A DNA stretch of 64,000 bases from Nitrospirota bacterium (GCA_963818475.1 CAWFSF010000006.1:1952001-2016000), one strand, 5' to 3'; shown: positions 13,406 to 49,300, numbered from the stretch's first letter. The notes: generated from the letters alone by a model not told the origin. Numbers and translations: made by a program.

Positions 13406-13431
13406 TATTCCGCAATCCGCATTCCGCAATC
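13406..13431. repeat. Solo heptamer tandem repeat (ATTCCGC/AATCCGC)n
   Basis: TTATTCCGCAATCCGCATTCCGCAATC between the DUF294 and exonuclease genes; same family as 41522/42023. Confidence 0.6.
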
Positions 13432-29049: not shown

Positions 29050-30074
29050 TATTTCTTGCTCCCGGACCAGCGATCGTCAACCAGGCCCTCCAGGGAGAGG
29101 GGCGATGATGATGCCGGCAAAGAACCTTTGAAAAACCGCTCGGTCTCCTGCATCTGCTGTTTGGAAAATCGTCCATCCGGACTGAACATGTTCGGGTATT
29201 TTTTCAAGGTCAGAAGCAGCCAGCGCTTCTCCTCGGGATCCTGGACCTCGAGTTTATCCACGATCTGCTCCGGTGTGGCTTTCGACATCCACTCCAGGGT
29301 CCGTTTTACTATTTTGACCATGACTTCTACTTTTTTTGGTTCGCGCTGAACAACCTCCCCCCGGGTCGCCACAACAGCGTGGAGGAATCCCGCGTCAGGA
29401 ATCTTTTTTGCTGTTGACGGGTCCGCAAGATTCATAAGAAAAAAAACTTCTTTTTCAGCCAGGAGACGCGAAGCAAAGGGTTCGCTGCCCATCACTGCGT
29501 CCACGGTGTGGCTTTTGAACAGCGCAGAGAGCAACTCGTAACTATGTTCCGCGGAGACATAACGGACGAGTTCCGGAGACACGCCGTTCGCCTTCAACAC
29601 CATCTCGGTAAGCTGCTGGGAGACGGTCTTGCTTGATAACGAACTGGTATAGATCCCTATCACCCTCCCTTTCAGGTCAGCAATGGTCCTGACCTTGTCC
29701 TTGAGATCCGCCCGGACCATGAGAATAAAAATGGGCACATTGCCGCTGAGAGGTGCGATTACAACGACACTTCCGCCATTGTTTTTCAGCGACATGGCGG
29801 CGGGCGTGCCTGCGACACCGAAATCCGTATTGCGCGACATGAGTTCCTTATACACCACGCCGCCGCCGCTTAAGTAGCGCACGGTCACCACGGCTCCTTC
29901 CGCCTTATCCGCGCCGATCTTTGAAATAAGGTCGATGGGCAGATAGCTCAGGCTGCGCGGTCCGGGTACGCTCACCACGATCTGGAGGGGTGGTTCCGCT
30001 GCCTGCGCAGTCCACCCGGCTGCCAGGAGCAAAGACGAAACAATAATGCTTAAGATTCTGTGTTTTTGCGACAT
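29049..30074 (-). CDS. ABC-type substrate-binding protein (NMT1/THI5/SsuA-like)
   Basis: Signal peptide AQA, IADLKGRVIG, VDAVMGSEPF; stop overlaps the kinase ATG. Confidence 0.82.
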   Translation of the reverse strand: MSQKHRILSIIVSSLLLAAGWTAQAAEPPLQIVVSVPGPRSLSYLPIDLISKIGADKAEGAVVTVRYLSGGGVVYKELMSRNTDFGVAGTPAAMSLKNNGGSVVVIAPLSGNVPIFILMVRADLKDKVRTIADLKGRVIGIYTSSLSSKTVSQQLTEMVLKANGVSPELVRYVSAEHSYELLSALFKSHTVDAVMGSEPFASRLLAEKEVFFLMNLADPSTAKKIPDAGFLHAVVATRGEVVQREPKKVEVMVKIVKRTLEWMSKATPEQIVDKLEVQDPEEKRWLLLTLKKYPNMFSPDGRFSKQQMQETERFFKGSLPASSSPLSLEGLVDDRWSGSKK

Positions 30075-40901: not shown

Positions 40902-41507
40902 TCATATTTTTCTGAGCACCCCCACGACCTTGCCGAGCACCCGCAGATCGCCCTGCTCAACATAGATCGGCCGCATGGTGCGGTTCTCCGGCTGCAGCCG
41001 TACGCGGTTCTTTTCCATAAAGAACCGCTTGACCGTTGCCTCGCCATCGACCATAGCGACCACGATATCGCCGTCACGCGCCACGTTCTGCGAATGGACA
41101 ATAAGGCTGTCGCCGTCCACGATATGGGAGTCCACCATACTGTCGCCCTTCACCTTCAGGGCGAATATTCCCTGCGGAGATCTGAGCCTGAACAGGGAGA
41201 GATCGACCTTGATCTCCCCTTCCCGGTGCTCGGGCGAGAGCACCGGCGTGCCGGCCGCCACCCTGCCGAGCAGGGGTATCGACGCCATGGGCCGCTCTCC
41301 TGACGTCAGGCGGATCCCGTGGGACTTCCCGCGCTCTCGCGTGATCAAACCGCCCCGTTCAAGGGCTGCCAGATGGCGGTCCACACCGTTCGTGGACTTG
41401 ATGCCGAACTCCGCGCCGATCTCGCGCATGGTCGGTGGGATGCCGCGTTCGTCGATGGATGCCCTGATGAATTCGTAGATCTCCTGCTGCCGTTCAGTGA
41501 TGGCCAT
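40902..41507 (-). CDS. lexA: SOS repressor LexA
   Basis: TERQQEIY..PPTMREIG, LLGRVAAG (Ala-Gly cleavage site), GDSM (Ser), TVKR (Lys). Confidence 0.96.
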   Translation of the reverse strand: MAITERQQEIYEFIRASIDERGIPPTMREIGAEFGIKSTNGVDRHLAALERGGLITRERGKSHGIRLTSGERPMASIPLLGRVAAGTPVLSPEHREGEIKVDLSLFRLRSPQGIFALKVKGDSMVDSHIVDGDSLIVHSQNVARDGDIVVAMVDGEATVKRFFMEKNRVRLQPENRTMRPIYVEQGDLRVLGKVVGVLRKI

Positions 41508-41521
41508 ATAACACCCCTTTC

Positions 41522-41553
41522 AATTGCGGATTTCGGATTGCGGATTTCGGATT
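41522..41553. repeat. Heptamer tandem repeat, left arm bracketing the four-helix-bundle gene
   Basis: AATTGCGG ATTTCGG ATTGCGG ATTTCGG ATT. Confidence 0.85.
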
Positions 41554-41634
41554 AACACCGAAAAAGGGAACCTCAAATCCAACGGATATTTGTTTTGCCC
41601 GAGGGATTATGAAAATAATATATGAAGCGTGCTC

Positions 41635-41994
41635 TCAGGCCTTTGTTTTTTTTCTTGCCGTATTAATCGAAGATACCGTTATTGCCAAGAGTTCGTTTGC
41701 TTCTTTCATAAGCTCTTTTGTTCGCTGCTCATTGATCAGGCCGCTTTCCCCAAGAAGTTCCATCCAAAAAATCGACTCATCAGCTTCTTCTTCAACGATA
41801 CACATCTTATTGATAAAATCAGCAGAGGACCTTGACCTGCAGGCAGCCCGATAGTTCGCCGCCACCGATGTTCCCGACCTCAACAACTGCCTGCCCATCA
41901 CATCAGACGCCCTACCCTGAGGAAGCGTATCAATCATCTTAACAACTCTTAGTGAAAAATTCTTCATCCTTACTTTCATAGTCTCAGGATCCAT
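41635..41994 (-). CDS. Four-helix-bundle protein (23S rRNA intervening-sequence protein family)
   Basis: FSLRVVKM..LP..QLLRSGTSVAANYRAACRSRS.ADFINKM.IVEEEADES.FW.ELL..EANELLAI. Confidence 0.92.
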   Translation of the reverse strand: MDPETMKVRMKNFSLRVVKMIDTLPQGRASDVMGRQLLRSGTSVAANYRAACRSRSSADFINKMCIVEEEADESIFWMELLGESGLINEQRTKELMKEANELLAITVSSINTARKKTKA

Positions 41995-42022
41995 ATTTAC
42001 GTCCTTCCGATTTTGCCTTTTA

Positions 42023-42054
42023 AATCCGCAATCCGAAATCCGCAATCCGAAATT
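42023..42054. repeat. Heptamer tandem repeat, right arm (inverted relative to 41522)
   Basis: AATCCGC AATCCGA AATCCGC AATCCGA AATT. Confidence 0.85.
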
Positions 42055-42055
42055 C

Positions 42056-43328
42056 CTAATATTGCCTGTCCCCTGCCGGCCGCCATGCAGGCGAAATGAC
42101 CCTCTCGTGATGAGCGCGTTCGGCCAGCGTGCCCCAGGTGACAGTGTAGTTCCCGTACCGGTCGTTGATATCGTCCATGGCCTCGGCAATGAACCCGCGC
42201 TTCCGCTCTTCGGTGAACAATGGCATCTGCACTGCATTCCGTTCAAGGCCCGACATGCTGACGCCTACCAGCCTTATTGCCTGGTGCAAAGGCAGTTCGC
42301 GCAGCAGGCCCATTGCGGCTGCATAAATATCCAGTCCGTGGTTGACCGTATGCTGCAGCCGCCGTTGTTTCGAAAAGGTATGGAAGTCAGAATATCGGAT
42401 GGTCAGGGTAACGGTCCTGCCGCGGTATCCTGCCCCGCCGGAGCCGCTGGCCCACTTTTTCGGAAAGCTGCAGCAGGTGCCGTTCGATCATCGTCCGGTC
42501 CGCGCAGTCCTCCTCGAGCGTCATGCTGTGGCCCATGGACCTGCTTGCTTCAGCCTCCTGCTCCGCGGCAGACACGACCGGGTCGTCGTCGATACCCCGG
42601 GCCATGTCACGAAGCCGTTCTCCGAGAATGCCGAACCGGGCTGTGAGCATGCGGACCGAAGCGCGACCCAGTTCCCCGCAGGTCTGGATCCCCATGGACG
42701 CGAGCTGTTTCGTCAGGTTCGGACCGATGCCGCAGATCTGCTGTACCGGCAGGTCTTCCAGCACATCGGCCACGAAGTCGGGAGTGATCAGCACCAGGCC
42801 GTCCGGCTTCTGGAGATCGCTTCCCAGTTTTGCCAAAAGCTTGTTCGGCGCAATGCCGATGGAACAGAGAAGCCCCATCTCTTCCCAGATCCGCTCCTTG
42901 ATCCTGAGAGCAATGCGAACCGGGTCCCCGAACAGCGCCTCGCAGCCGGTCACATCGAGAAAAGCCTCGTCAATGGAGAATAGCTCGACCACGGGCGTGA
43001 ATTCGCTCCAGATGGCGATCAGGCGTTCGCAGGCCTGGGAATACTTTGCGGAATCGGCGATCGCCATGACGATCCCGGGACAAGCTTTCTTCGCCTCGCC
43101 ATAGGTCATGCCGGTCTTTACACCATAGGCACGGGCCTCGTAAGAGGGTGACAATATCACGCCCCGGTGCTTCGAACCGATCACGGCTATGGGCCGGTCC
43201 CGGAGCGCGGGATTCGCCCGCTGCTCCACCGAGGCGAAAAAAGCGTTCATGTCCACATGCAAAATCGTTTTAATTGCGGATTTCGGATTGCAGATTGCGG
43301 ATTTATCACAGAGCGTAGAAGACACCAT
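42056..43328 (-). CDS. dinB: DNA polymerase IV (frameshift near 42430)
   Basis: ILHVDMNAFFASVEQ, SYEARAYGV, SIDEAFLD, GIAPNKLLAKLGSDLQKPDG, IRLVGVS. Confidence 0.95.
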
Positions 43329-43394
43329 GGGAGTTATCCTTTCAGGCTTTCTCGTATATGCGCATTTTAAATCCATCAACGGGCACGAGAATCA

Positions 43395-43422
43395 TAGGTG
43401 AGGGTTTTAAACCCGCCCCTAC
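43395..43422. repeat. GTAG-type REP-like hairpin in the dinB leader
   Basis: Minus strand reads GTAGGGGCGGGTTTAAAACCCTCACCTA; a related copy lies near 46320-46347. Confidence 0.55.
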
Positions 43423-43453
43423 CTTTTGTTCGTTATTCATTGGTAATGATTTG

Positions 43454-43482
43454 ATTATAGTGAACACTTGTTCACTTGTCAA
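43454..43482 (-). promoter_or_regulatory. dinB-lexA promoter with SOS box
   Basis: TTGACA (43482-43477), 17 bp, TATAAT (43459-43454); the spacer is the palindrome AGTGAAC-ACTT-GTTCACT (GAAC-N4-GTTC). Confidence 0.88.
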
Positions 43483-43738: not shown

Positions 43739-45673
43739 ATGAAACAGATGAACTCTGACAATATGCTCACCAGGCAGAGCGAGAAAATCCTCCAGACCAT
43801 CATTGAGACGGAGCCGGACTGCATCAAGCTGCTTGACCAGGACGGCAAGCTCCTGATGATGAACCGTGCGGGTCTGTCAATGATCGAGGCCGAGTCCTTC
43901 GACATAGTGCGGGGAAGGCCTGTCGCCCCCTTGGTCGCCCCCGAATACCGGGATGCTTTCATGAACATTATTGCGGAGGCCTTCCAGGGACGGCCGGGCT
44001 TTCTTGAATTTGAGATCGTCGGGATCAAAGGCCGCCGGCTCTGGCTGGAGACCCGTGCCGTTCCTCTGCGCAATGACCGCAACGAAATAACCGCCATGCT
44101 CGGGGTGACCCGGGACATCACCGAACGAAAAAAAGCGGGACAGGCGCTGATCGACAGCGAGAAACGCTTCAAACGGCTCGTTGAATCGGTCACCGACTAC
44201 ATCTATACCGTAAAGGTCGAGAACGGCCGCGTCGTTGAAACCGTCCATGGCCCGGGCTGCGTAGCCGTGACCGGCTATTCCCCGGAAGAATACCACGCCG
44301 ACCCTTACCTGTGGTACCGCATGATCTTCGAAGAGGACCGTGACGCCATCCTGAAGAAGACGAACGACATCCTCTCCGGCTCTCCCGTGACACCCTTCGA
44401 ACACCGGATCATACATAAGAACGGAACGATCCGGTGGGTGAAGAACACGCCCGTACCGCGGTTCGATACCGAGGGGCGGCTGGTCGACTACGACGGTTTG
44501 ATCACCGACATTACTCCCCTGAAACACCTTGAAGCACAGCTGGGCCAGGCGCAGAAAATGGAGGCCGTCGGGCAGCTGGCGGGCGGCGTTGCCCATGACT
44601 TCAACAATATCCTCACCGCCATCATCGGCTACGGCAACCTCAGCCTGATGAAGCTGCCTGCCGGCGATGCCGTACGCCCCTTTGTTTCACAGATCCTCGC
44701 CTCTGCGGAGCGGGCCGCCCAGCTGACGCACAGCCTGCTCGCCTTCAGCAGAAAGCAGGTCATCGATCTCAGAACCGTGGACCTCAATGCGATCGTCCAG
44801 CGGGTGAATTCGCTCCTGATCAAGCTCATTGGCGCGGATATCGAGTTCAAGACCAACCTTTGCAACGGGAACCTGACGGTCCTTGCCGACAGTGTGCAGG
44901 TGGAGCAGATCCTGATGAACCTGGTTATGAACGCCCGCGATGCCGTGCGGGACCACGGCACGATCACGATCGAAACGGGCATCTTCGAGATCGGCGAGGA
45001 ATTCATACGGACCCATGCGTACGGAGAGCCCGGCAGCTACGCCCTGCTGACCATATCGGATACGGGTGAAGGCATGGACGAAGCGACCCGTCGCAGGATC
45101 TTCGAACCCTTTTTCACGACCAAGGAGGTCGGGAAGGGCACGGGCCTGGGACTGTCGATGGTGTACGGGATCATCAAACAGCACAAAGGCTACATCACGG
45201 TCTCCAGCGAACCGGGGAAAGGCACCATCTTCAGCATCTACCTGCCGCTTGTCGCCGGCGGCGCACTGGAAGCGGAAAAGAAGGCGCCGGCAGGCGAGCC
45301 GCGGGGCGGAGAAACGGTGCTGCTTGCAGAGGACGACCGCGAGGTCCGCAACCTCACGAAGATGGTGCTCGAGAACTTCGGCTACCGGGTGATCGAAGCG
45401 GTGGACGGAGAGGACGCGGTGAAGAAATTCAACGAGCAGAGCACCGCCATAGACCTGCTTGTCTTTGACATCATCATGCCGAAAAAGAACGGCAAGGATG
45501 CATACCTGGCGATCAAGCAAACACGACCTGATATAAAAGTGCTGTTCACCAGCGGCTACACGGAGGACATCATCCACAAAAAGGGGATCCTCGATCCCGA
45601 CATGGTTTTCATCCTGAAGCCGATTTCACCAACGATGTTACTGAAAAAAGTACGGGAAGTGCTGGACAAATGA
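43739..45673 (+). CDS. PAS-PAS hybrid histidine kinase-response regulator
   Basis: PAS/PAC twice, [43 protein letters not shown]. Confidence 0.93.
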
Positions 45674-45781
45674 TTGCGGGTTGCGGATTGGAATCGGGAA
45701 ATGCGAAATCTGGTTTTGCTTTTACTAATACCTGTCCCTCTGCGCCTTAAAATCCGAAATCCGTAATCCGCAATCCGAAAT
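45673..45781. repeat. Empty heptamer inverted-repeat pair between convergent genes
   Basis: ATTGCGGGTTGCGGATTGG.. vs AATCCGAAATCCGTAATCCGCAATCCGAAAT. Confidence 0.7.
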
Positions 45782-46384: not shown

Positions 46385-49300
46385 TGGTTAATCCCCGCAT
46401 GTGCGGGGAACATTACTATCAGGTAAAAATTGGGGGGTCTTATGACGGTTCATCCCCGCTCGTGCGGGGAACATGAATGAGCACGAACACGGCCATCATG
46501 GCAGGCCGGTTCATCCCCGCACGTGCGGGGAACATACGTTAAAATTCGACTCCTTCCAGATCACGGCCGGTTCATCCCCGCACGTGCGGGGAACATAAAG
46601 AAAAAAGAGAATTTCTAAGGGTGAGTTTCGGTTCATCCCCGCACGTGCGGGGAACATTTGTCATCTATAGCGAGGTCAAGCCGTGTTACCGGTTCATCCC
46701 CGCACGTGCGGGGAACATGATTTTGGGGCGTGTCCGCGTTTGGCCAACTCCGGTTCATCCCCGCACGTGCGGGGAACATTCTACCAGTATCTCATCGAGC
46801 TCCCGCTTCGCCGGTTCATCCCCGCACGTGCGGGGAACATGCCGGTGAATTATGGCGATATTTTGAAACAACCGGTTCATCCCCGCACGTGCGGGGAACA
46901 TCTCTTCAAGAGACCGACCGGGTTCGGTACCGGCGGTTCATCCCCGCACGTGCGGGGAACATATCGGCACCTACGGCAAGACGCCCGGCAGTGTACGGTT
47001 CATCCCCGCACGTGCGGGGAACATGCCGAAGAAGTGGACCTCGGACCGTCTACGCCGGTTCATCCCCGCACGTGCGGGGAACATTCTGTCCCGAAGGCGA
47101 AGGTGATGATACCCTGCGGTTCATCCCCGCACGTGCGGGGAACATGGTCGGAAAAGCCAAGCAGGCTCGGCCGCGGTTCATCCCCGCACGTGCGGGGAAC
47201 ATATTCGGCCCAATCGTCGCACCTTCATGACGGTTCATCCCCGCACGTGCGGGGAACATCGAGTCAGCCTTATCACACGATACACGATCCGGTTCATCCC
47301 CGCACGTGCGGGGAACATAGCTCGGCGGGGTCGACTTCGACGATTCCCGTGCGGTTCATCCCCGCACGTGCGGGGAACATCTGCTTCGCTTTCAGTTCCA
47401 CGTTGAATGCAGCCGGTTCATCCCCGCACGTGCGGGGAACATGTATCGATACGGATAAGCATCCTCTTCACCGTCGGTTCATCCCCGCACGTGCGGGGAA
47501 CATGATATAAAAGCCTATAAGAATTCCTGCAAGTCGTCGGTTCATCCCCGCACGTGCGGGGAACATGCTGTCGAGCATCCACGATCAACTGCGCAGCACA
47601 CGGTTCATCCCCGCACGTGCGGGGAACATGCACGCTTCTCCTGCAGCATCGTCGTACCTGCCGGTTCATCCCCGCACGTGCGGGGAACATGTACCCATGC
47701 AAACATCGGTACCTGCCCTACGGTTCATCCCCGCACGTGCGGGGAACATGCGATGTACAGCAATTATCTTTGTTCTCTTTATCGGTTCATCCCCGCACGT
47801 GCGGGGAACATCGATTTGACATAATATACACAAGCGTCCAATGCGGTTCATCCCCGCACGTGCGGGGAACATGCGATATACGTCAGGGCAGCGCGACGCC
47901 TATCGGTTCATCCCCGCACGTGCGGGGAACAGTAGCGGTCACTCAATACCGTGCTCGCAGCTCGCCGGTTCATCCCCGCACGTGCGGGGAACATGCTATC
48001 CAGCCGGACGCTTCAGTACGGCCGCCGGTTCATCCCCGCACGTGCGGGGAACATCGAGCGATCGTCACCGAATCAGCGCACGGCAAGCGGTTCATCCCCG
48101 CACGTGCGGGGAACATGCCGATCATGGCCGCCTCGATCGTTGCACCGAGGCCGGTTCATCCCCGCACGTGCGGGGAACATGACCATCGTGGCGTCACAGG
48201 TCCAACGAATCGGTTCATCCCCGCACGTGCGGGGAACATCGGATATCCGGACAGAACGGTCCAACGTACAGCGGTTCATCCCCGCACGTGCGGGGAACAT
48301 GTAAGCTGTTCGGATCTAACGCCGCGTCCGTCCGGTTCATCCCCGCACGTGCGGGGAACATGCCTCCGCGTGGTCCGCTCTTCGGTCGATCCGGTTCATC
48401 CCCGCACGTGCGGGGAACATGGCACGGCATCGAGGATCGCCGGTGCCCGGACGGTTCATCCCCGCACGTGCGGGGAACATTTTATCGCTTGTAGTAATCC
48501 AGATGACATCTCGGTTCATCCCCGCACGTGCGGGGAACATTGCACAGGCAACAGCACGGCAATGGTCGCATGCGGTTCATCCCCGCACGTGCGGGGAACA
48601 TTATGCCGCTAAACCGCTCGACACCGTATTCCGGTTCATCCCCGCACGTGCGGGGAACATATCCAGCTCCGAGGACGATCGTGGCCGCGAGATCGGTTCA
48701 TCCCCGCACGTGCGGGGAACATGACTGTGGCATGTACGAGTGATCCTGCAGCGGCGGTTCATCCCCGCACGTGCGGGGAACATTCAATTTCCGTGCTGTC
48801 AGCAACCACAAGGCCGGTTCATCCCCGCACGTGCGGGGAACATTTCGGAGTGGCGCATGGCGTCGGTTCGCACCGGTTCATCCCCGCACATGCGGGGAAC
48901 ATTATCATTAGCGTCCTCCTTGAATATTGATCGCGGTTCATCCCCGCACATGCGGGGAACATTTCATCCGGGCGTTACTCTCCGTTCTAAAACCGGTTCA
49001 TCCCCGCACGTGCGGGGAACATTCCTGATAACGTCAGGTATCGTTACTCAATCACGGTTCATCCCCGCACGTGCGGGGAACATAACCGCGTCAGAGACTG
49101 CGACGCACGGAGCACGGTTCATCCCCGCACATGCGGGGAACATAACTCTGACACAGTCATAGCTATGTTATCAGTCGGTTCATCCCCGCACATGCGGGGA
49201 ACATTCAGCCAGATGTCGCGCGACGATCGATGCGCGGTTCATCCCCGCACACGCGGGGAACATGTGACATGGAACAACGACATCGGCGACCTCGCCGGTT

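Follow-up and report, generated by a model that had tools for sequence, protein, structure and literature searches.

The window analysed here, 64,000 nucleotides of a Nitrospirota genome (GCA_963818475.1, CAWFSF010000006.1:1952001-2016000), carries on its minus strand a LexA-box promoter followed by dinB, an arm of four tandem heptamers, (ATTKCGG)4, a gene for a 119-aa protein, an inverted arm, and lexA (Table 1). A sequence-only reading of this DNA had described a four-helix-bundle gene with heptamer arms between dinB and lexA, and this arrangement is confirmed both by an inverted-repeat search and by profile matches. On the transcribed strand the 5' arm begins 1 nt after the dinB stop codon (42056-42058), adjoining it as that reading stated; the 3' arm ends 15 nt, rather than the 14 nt originally given, before the lexA ATG at 41507, with a Shine-Dalgarno-like AAAGGGG between the two. 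The cassette exactly occupies the gap from the upstream stop to the downstream ribosome-binding site. As was also noted, the gene is richer in AT than its neighbours: its GC content is 44.4% (GC3 47.5%), against 61.7% (79%) for lexA and 60.8% (77%) for dinB. The gene-less pair of arrays that had been noted elsewhere in the window is likewise present, its arms adjoining the stop codons of convergent histidine kinase and hemerythrin-like genes, with a loop of approximately 61-75 nt according to how the arm ends are drawn. A long CRISPR array (29-nt repeat, 61-nt period) lies about 600 nt from this pair and extends from position 46386 to at least 50861.

Table 1. Features of the dinB-lexA operon and arrays of the ATTKCGG family in the window (positions counted from its first nucleotide)
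Feature	Position	Strand	Remarks
Operon promoter, TTGACA-17 nt-TATAAT	43454..43482	-	12/12 sigma-70 match; LexA-type palindrome in spacer
GAAC-N4-GTTC palindrome	43462-43473; extended form 43460-43475		Inside promoter spacer
Older cassette, decayed remnant, 5' arm lost	43304..43453	-	Identity to G003 upstream loop
Solo heptamer array, 3'-arm type in transcript	43273..43303	+	Just upstream of conserved DinB N-terminus
dinB, Y-family DNA polymerase IV	42056..43328	-	Pfam IMS, E 7.3e-49
Cassette 5' arm, four tandem heptamers, AUUKCGG in transcript	42022..42054	-
119-aa four-helix-bundle gene	41635..41994	-	PF05635 / TIGR02436
Cassette 3' arm, CCGMAAU in transcript	41523..41553	+
lexA	40902..41507	-	Pfam LexA_DNA_bind and Peptidase_S24; TIGR00498, 228 bits
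Gene-less convergent array pair	45673..45781		Arms 45673-45689 and 45751-45781
Further solo array, ATTKCGG family	13410..13430	-
Further two-unit array, ATTKCGG family	29818..29831	-	2 mismatches

The arms are perfectly complementary over 25 nt, and to 90% over 31 nt, and stand 474-476 nt apart. The 14-mer, with at most two mismatches, is matched 15 times in the window where 0.88 matches are expected, and none of 100 shuffles reaches 15. In the fold predicted for the transcribed strand between 41500 and 42075 (576 nt), the arms pair as a stem of 29-30 bp in the MFE structure as well as in the centroid, with a z-score of -3.5 and none of 100 shuffles folding equally well, in agreement with the stem of about 30 bp that had been proposed to enclose the gene in the mRNA. 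The arm at 42021-42054 has an alternative partner in the array upstream of dinB (43273-43303), with a complementarity of 88% over 34 nt.

The 119-aa protein is a member of TIGR02436 (82.8 bits, cut-off 24) and matches PF05635 (58.7 bits, cut-off 33.8, E 7.6e-16), its sole match in Pfam. To our knowledge, this very large family has a known function only in DGRs. The predicted model has four helices and a pLDDT of 94, and its best fold matches are 2RLD (TM 0.82-0.86), 2GSC (TM 0.72-0.82) and the DGR accessory protein Avd (4DWL, TM 0.77), the last according with the relationship to Avd that was claimed beforehand. The match to 2RLD, a structure with five chains, extends to sequence (E 3.7e-28), and the available text of PMC4990558 gives the S23p protein of Xanthomonas as a pentamer. 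Comparison with the ortholog in G003, a genome of the same genus, yields a pN/pS of 0.19 and shows a protein evidently under purifying selection. A DGR context for the cassette was considered and rejected, there being no reverse transcriptase within 1.1 Mb: the genome holds seven RVT_1 matches, and the nearest is more than 1.1 Mb away. Five reverse-transcriptase ORFs (G000:C6:242078-273236 and 881607), each an open frame of 467 aa, have the same RVT_1 score and probably represent a proliferating group II intron; four of the five fall within 31 kb.

The promoter of the operon is a perfect sigma-70 sequence (TTGACA, 17 nt, TATAAT), the spacer of which carries the palindrome GAAC-N4-GTTC; by the Cheo-type consensus we take this to be a LexA box. 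The same extended palindrome, GTGAACA-NN-TGTTCAC, stands before a second Y-family polymerase gene in this genome (G000:C1:122194), which supports its identification as the LexA operator of the organism. Four of the relatives described below (G002, G003, G005 and G006) keep the promoter, and G011 has it with a single mismatch. No other promoter-like site was found before the four-helix-bundle gene. The start of dinB is ambiguous between ATG 43328, TTG 43262 and GTG 43256. A Shine-Dalgarno-like AAAGGA lies 8 nt upstream of ATG 43328 and is the tail of the decayed four-helix-bundle gene; from this codon the array at 43273-43303 would possibly be translated as an N-terminal extension of DinB, and in G003 the stretch from the array to the polymerase's catalytic HxD motif holds no start codon. 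The reading frame is also broken, by one extra base at about position 42431 (an additional A relative to G002 and G003), which splits dinB into an ORF at 42387-43379 and a C-terminal part at 42056-42313 (of 42056-43313). The N- and C-terminal parts are out of frame with each other only in the window genome, the other three members of the genus having an unbroken gene; the frameshift is either genuine, dinB then being a pseudogene, or an error of the assembly.

Our set of relatives comprised 30 genomes, the genus itself being represented by G000 (the window genome), G002, G003 and G005. Nine loci in this set, the window locus included, hold an ortholog or a remnant; all nine are armed, with lineage-specific units, and they occupy three contexts. 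That the gene is not fixed at its present position, as the sequence-only reading supposed, is borne out: elsewhere it lies upstream of dinB, the full cassette between dinB and lexA occurs only in G000 and G003, and the same junction is empty in G002, where another heptamer family is found. The junction of G005 is also without a cassette, and three ATTKCGG-type units adjoin the stop codon there. Since the four genomes divide as (G000,G003)|(G002,G005), with support of 100/99, one event explains the copy at the dinB-lexA junction. The family CAGGGTN, which is the second commonest heptamer family of the window genome with about 21 arrays, also occurs at the empty junctions of G002 and G005 (L096:5072-5162 and L097:5033-5129).

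A second site, upstream of dinB, has a different history in each member of the genus. In G002 both arms are kept and the gene has an in-frame internal deletion; the N-terminal part of this copy is identical to that of G006 at 26/35 positions and to the window gene at only 21/42. The arms in G005 are degenerate. In G003 both arms surround a 90-nt loop in which 37 nt of coding sequence are left (score 47, shuffle maximum 26), and by this match the gene-less pair is demonstrably derived from a cassette. The remnant in the window genome, at 43304-43453, is identical at 46/46 nt to the 3' part of that loop; matched directly with the cassette in its own window it scores 25, below the shuffle maximum of 29, and it owes its status as a remnant to the G003 loop, where the coding piece is found. 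Within the genus, these alignments show that the cassette moved or was duplicated within the SOS operon, that at the upstream site it was replaced, and that it decayed to a gene-less hairpin. Intact cassettes are also present in two other genera (G006 and G011), between a small ORF and dinB and behind the LexA-box promoter, while the orthologs of G009 and G013 have a histidine kinase gene on one side and a response regulator gene on the other. The small ORF, of about 86 aa (L136:5193-5453 in G011, with an equivalent in G006), has its last codons within the 5' arm and a sub-threshold match to DUF6504. The earlier proposal of a mobile cassette that enters operons stands in part. The change of place, the empty junction and the armed relatives described below speak for it; against it, no target-site duplication was seen between the filled (G000, G003) and empty (G002, G005) junctions, the spacer having been replaced instead, and no recombinase or mobility enzyme was seen to be encoded by the cassette.

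A scan with one genome per species returned 591 relatives, the best 80 of which (47-64% identity, at least 14 named phyla) were examined. Extended ORFs often read into the 3' arm, and the flanks were therefore set from the match positions; arms were called strong at an inverted-repeat score of at least 36. By this measure 59 of the best 80 loci are armed, most of them scoring above the maximum of their own 20 shuffles, and among loci with full flanks the figure is 56/74, against 5/130 for neighbour genes; family members are thus generally flanked by arms, as had been anticipated. Arms were likewise found at five of six IMG/VR loci. The units are mostly 7-mers, with some 8-mers, which is a qualitative statement as the counts are unreliable. 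At L020, in a Planctomycetota MAG, the arms are about 134 nt long, with a higher-order repeat of about 45 nt containing the heptamers, and the inverted-repeat score reaches 106.

The placing of the cassette is also conserved in this wider sample. The 5' arm starts a median of 2 nt past the stop codon of the upstream sense gene (47/62 within -9..+6), and the 3' arm ends a median of 8 nt short of the first start codon in the downstream frame (35/63 within -2..+10, with starts as predicted). The gene is co-oriented with both neighbours in 46/64 cases, a moderate increase, on crude ORF calls, over the half or so obtained by squaring the background (169/236 pairs). Upstream neighbours (n = 71, Pfam scan) are diverse housekeeping genes and include one RecX, and several genomic contexts recur among the best 80 loci. 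Mapped onto the protein tree, the heptamer class requires 26 changes (mean 51.8 and minimum 44 in 300 shuffles) and the phylum label 29 (45.3 in shuffles); a single class is found in as many as 11 phyla, and as many as five classes occur in a single phylum. Because kin share labels, this signal is not evidence of recognition; it shows that gene and arms have been inherited or transferred jointly, as a unit. Given that the cassette is kept in the operon across three genera and that contexts recur among the 80 loci, much of the distribution may be vertical descent.

The SOS setting raises the question of whether the gene has been domesticated, as part of a fixed dinB-lexA module in which, for example, an RNA-binding protein and its sites tune the translation of lexA or dinB after damage. 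Such a module would account for the presence of the cassette in a LexA-box operon in three genera (5/9 loci, the window included), for the purifying selection on its protein, and for the arrays that flank dinB and lexA, one of which may be translated within DinB. It is harder to reconcile with the loss or decay of the cassette in G002 and G005 while the operon is intact, with the orthologs of G009 and G013 beside a two-component pair, or with the wider sample, in which none of the loci (0/80, the best 80 of 591 relatives) has DinB or LexA within 3 kb, and we regard domestication as quite improbable. A general SOS association of PF05635 cassettes is rejected on that last count, and the SOS location is specific to the Nitrospirota lineage under study.

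A point absent from the sequence-only reading is that the arms are not special to the cassette: the ATTKCGG array is the main and commonest dispersed repeat of the window genome, and mostly occurs without a gene. Arrays of at least two units number 299, compared with 55 in a shuffled genome; 153 have at least three units and 118 at least four. There are 230 arrays with a period of 7, whereas periods 5, 6, 8 and 9 give 8-41, and array length peaks sharply at four units (44 arrays of three units, 122 of four, 11 of five and one of six). Of the 42 convergent pairs, 36 enclose a loop of 9-100 nt, and these loops are unrelated in sequence. When the loops of 39 other convergent pairs of this genome were searched for cassette remnants, two weak matches were obtained, as against two in shuffled loops, and cassette decay as a general origin of empty pairs is rejected. 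An origin of empty pairs from cassettes is supported by one pair, in G003, and not by these 39.

The abundance of gene-less arrays admits a sceptical explanation, namely that the arrays are an ordinary intergenic repeat, whether the site of a regulator or a REP-like stabiliser, which favours operon spacers and has bracketed this gene by coincidence, so that no cassette unit exists. Three consecutive spacers of the operon each hold an array, and in the available text of PMC2700814 the paired heptanucleotide arrays of Geobacter metallireducens, with 4-5 units, are read as sites of a global regulator. Nor are partner arms specially matched: their complementarity is 16.2, and 15.3 when arms are re-paired, and 38/500 shuffles reach the observed value, and pair-specific matching is rejected, although the 25 nt of perfect complementarity in the cassette arms are the joint-longest among 29 pairs. 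Coincidence does not, however, predict that arms should accompany the gene into different contexts and phyla, nor the excess of armed loci over neighbour genes given above, nor the situation of the other family members in the window genome. Of seven PF05635 matches there, only the window copy has ATTKCGG arms, and yet an unbiased flank search found inverted tandem 7-mer arms at 5/5 bona fide paralogs (inverted-repeat scores 21-52), each with its own 7-mer (GGTGAGT, CAAGTAG, GAAGTTT, ATTGGAA and ATTKCGG). By these paralog-specific arms and the neighbour-gene comparison the coincidental reading is largely refuted, and we consider it very improbable. At one paralog (G000:C6:1705765-1706049, with its flanks) the motif 'array + ~14 nt + ATG' occurs twice, before the four-helix-bundle gene and before the next gene, and it looks as if the insert had duplicated the leader of the downstream gene.

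Solo arrays of the ATTKCGG family in the window genome (n = 92), the gene context of which was classified with GC3-filtered frames in order to remove spurious antisense frames, are strand-specific: between co-directional genes ATTKCGG is sense in 51 cases and antisense in 9. Forty of 67 begin 0-6 nt past a stop codon, compared with 13/300 random intergenic sites and 16/92 arrays of other heptamer families. Their orientation agrees with GC skew in 69/92 (Fisher 7e-5), and only eight lie beside lagging-strand genes, split 4/4, so that replication and transcription are confounded as causes of the bias. All short pairs have the G-rich arm in front (36 convergent, 0 divergent), and the closest divergent pair is 746 nt apart. 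One idea is that C-rich arrays in the sense orientation are selected against as Rho-loading sites; no explanation fits the stop-codon position, the sense bias and the precedence of the G-rich arm together.

Several of these regularities would be expected if gene and repeat were partners in the manner of REP and RAYT, with a ring protein that attaches to its own heptamer arrays, each subunit taking up about one unit, and either propagates them or uses them as genome-wide regulatory sites after stops. The cassette would then be the master copy and the 150-odd arrays its sites. A single-copy gene that has the dominant dispersed repeat of its genome on either side, in inverted orientation, fits this description, as do arms that are specific to each paralog, an array length that peaks at four units beside the five chains of 2RLD, the strand-specific solo arrays that start at stops, and the constant order of the short pairs. 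Genes of the clade were found only in array-bearing genomes (0/14 array-free genomes have one), and the accessible part of a preprint on Nostoc postulates a heptamer-binding partner (10.1101/2022.06.06.494920). Set against this are three genomes, G005 (92% complete), G010 and G014 (both 100%), that carry 61-155 array matches and no PF05635 gene with matching arms, and the heptamers of the four other paralogs in the window genome, which have few dispersed copies. The protein is without a nuclease or recombinase domain, and the shared labels of kin deprive the tree signal of any value as proof of recognition. A partnership of this kind is possible, but on balance we think it unlikely. A bolder extension would make the PF05635 ring the long-sought partner of bacterial heptamer repeats, reading the array of 4-5 units after a stop as part of a genome-wide post-transcriptional system, damage-induced through the LexA promoter in this lineage, with the 23S intervening sequence (IVS) as the same element in rRNA. 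This we put forward as a distinctly unlikely, speculative scheme; if it were true, arrays, hairpin pairs and master cassette would act on termination-reinitiation coupling, Rho protection or RNase III processing.

The reading that we prefer, and consider probable though well short of certain, is that the segment from 41522 to 42054 is one copy of a widespread and apparently undescribed class of small cassettes, tolerated by operons as read-through inserts with an arm duplex. Each would consist of a PF05635 four-helix-bundle gene with an array of about four tandem heptamers at either end, the two arrays being inverted relative to each other. Without a promoter of its own, the present copy would be read through from the LexA-box promoter, and in the polycistronic RNA the arm duplex of 29-30 bp would loop the gene out and bring the dinB stop beside the lexA start. 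The duplex may be what makes the insert tolerable, either by permitting RNase III to cut as it does in rRNA intervening sequences (an rnc gene is present in the genome) or because ribosomes finishing dinB would melt the stem and so free the lexA start. RNase III cutting and SOS expression of the cassette, both suggested in the sequence-only reading, would be plausible steps. At the level of DNA, our guess would be that cassettes move or are swapped through recombination between arrays. Outside rRNA, no PF05635 cassette with heptamer arms is described in the literature that we searched.

The locus offers rules that can be tested, namely paralog-specific arms, an arm start at the stop codon, the G-rich arm first, a peak at four units and decay to gene-less hairpins, and a natural experiment in the four genomes of one genus, which present filled, empty, replaced and decayed sites in a single operon. 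If the stem does insulate the insert, selfish or accessory genes would have in it a new means of residing within essential transcription units, and the same principle could be used in the design of engineered operons.

Many bacterial genomes carry tandem heptamer arrays, which have long lacked an explanation. Paired 4x and 5x heptanucleotide elements appear in the available text on Geobacter metallireducens (PMC2700814), TAACTGA arrays just upstream of start codons in that on Beggiatoaceae and cyanobacteria (PMC4679880), and heptamer repeats near gene ends in that on Nostoc (10.1101/2022.06.06.494920). The arrays described here are likewise composed of 4-5 tandem 7-mers, intergenic, near gene ends and sometimes paired, but they differ from the TAACTGA arrays in lying just after stop codons. 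We found no link to PF05635 genes in the accessible portions of these three sources. PF05635 is for its part the commonest Pfam family near DGR reverse transcriptases, according to the available text of PMC10053308. With Avd (4DWL, 8UB7) the protein has in common the four-helix-bundle fold, at a TM of 0.77 and a sequence identity of 14-15%; the cassette has no adjacent reverse transcriptase.

In REP/RAYT systems the gene encodes a Y1 (HUH) transposase, and the repeat is dispersed intergenically and forms hairpin pairs. The resemblance to such REPINs lies in a single gene bracketed by inverted copies of an intergenic repeat with more than 100 copies, in the hairpin pairs and in the strand bias. 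The differences are that no HUH/Y1 transposase is found here, the gene specifying a 119-aa helical bundle, that the repeats are tandem 7-mers and not one palindrome, that the loops of pairs are unrelated, and that arrays persist in complete genomes without a matching gene. Fixed-polarity inverted terminal repeats and short gene-less derivatives, one of which arose by internal deletion (in G003), also recall MITEs and TIR transposons; unlike these, the cassette has neither transposase nor target-site duplication, and the gene-less pairs share arms and not interiors.

Where the ORF-bearing intervening sequences of rRNA come from has been a question since 1993. Like those of 23S rRNA, as in helix 45 of Coxiella burnetii and in Leptospira, the cassette has terminal inverted repeats for a stem of about 28 bp, a loop that contains a PF05635 ORF, tandem heptamers and a size of about 430-530 nt. 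In the Coxiella element, as the available text of PMC4990558 describes it, RNase III cuts the 28-bp terminal stem in its middle, the 5' end carries tandem heptamers (GACAGAT x3), and the S23p ORF is reported as decaying and unexpressed. The host of the present cassette is an mRNA operon, dinB-lexA, and not rRNA helix 25 or 45; each of its two arms is an entire heptamer array, the same as the dispersed repeat of the genome; and its ORF is under purifying selection where, in the same text, that of Coxiella decays. The enclosing stem of an IVS is there (25 nt perfect, 29-30 bp in the predicted fold), and the insertion in 23S rRNA is not, so that by its location between dinB and lexA the cassette is IVS-like in design, yet outside the IVS class. 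What the locus does have is inverted 7-8-mer arrays on both sides of a PF05635 gene, set 1 nt from a stop and 15 nt from a start, and in this it ties together the PF05635 family, the tandem heptamer arrays and the ORF-bearing intervening sequences of rRNA.
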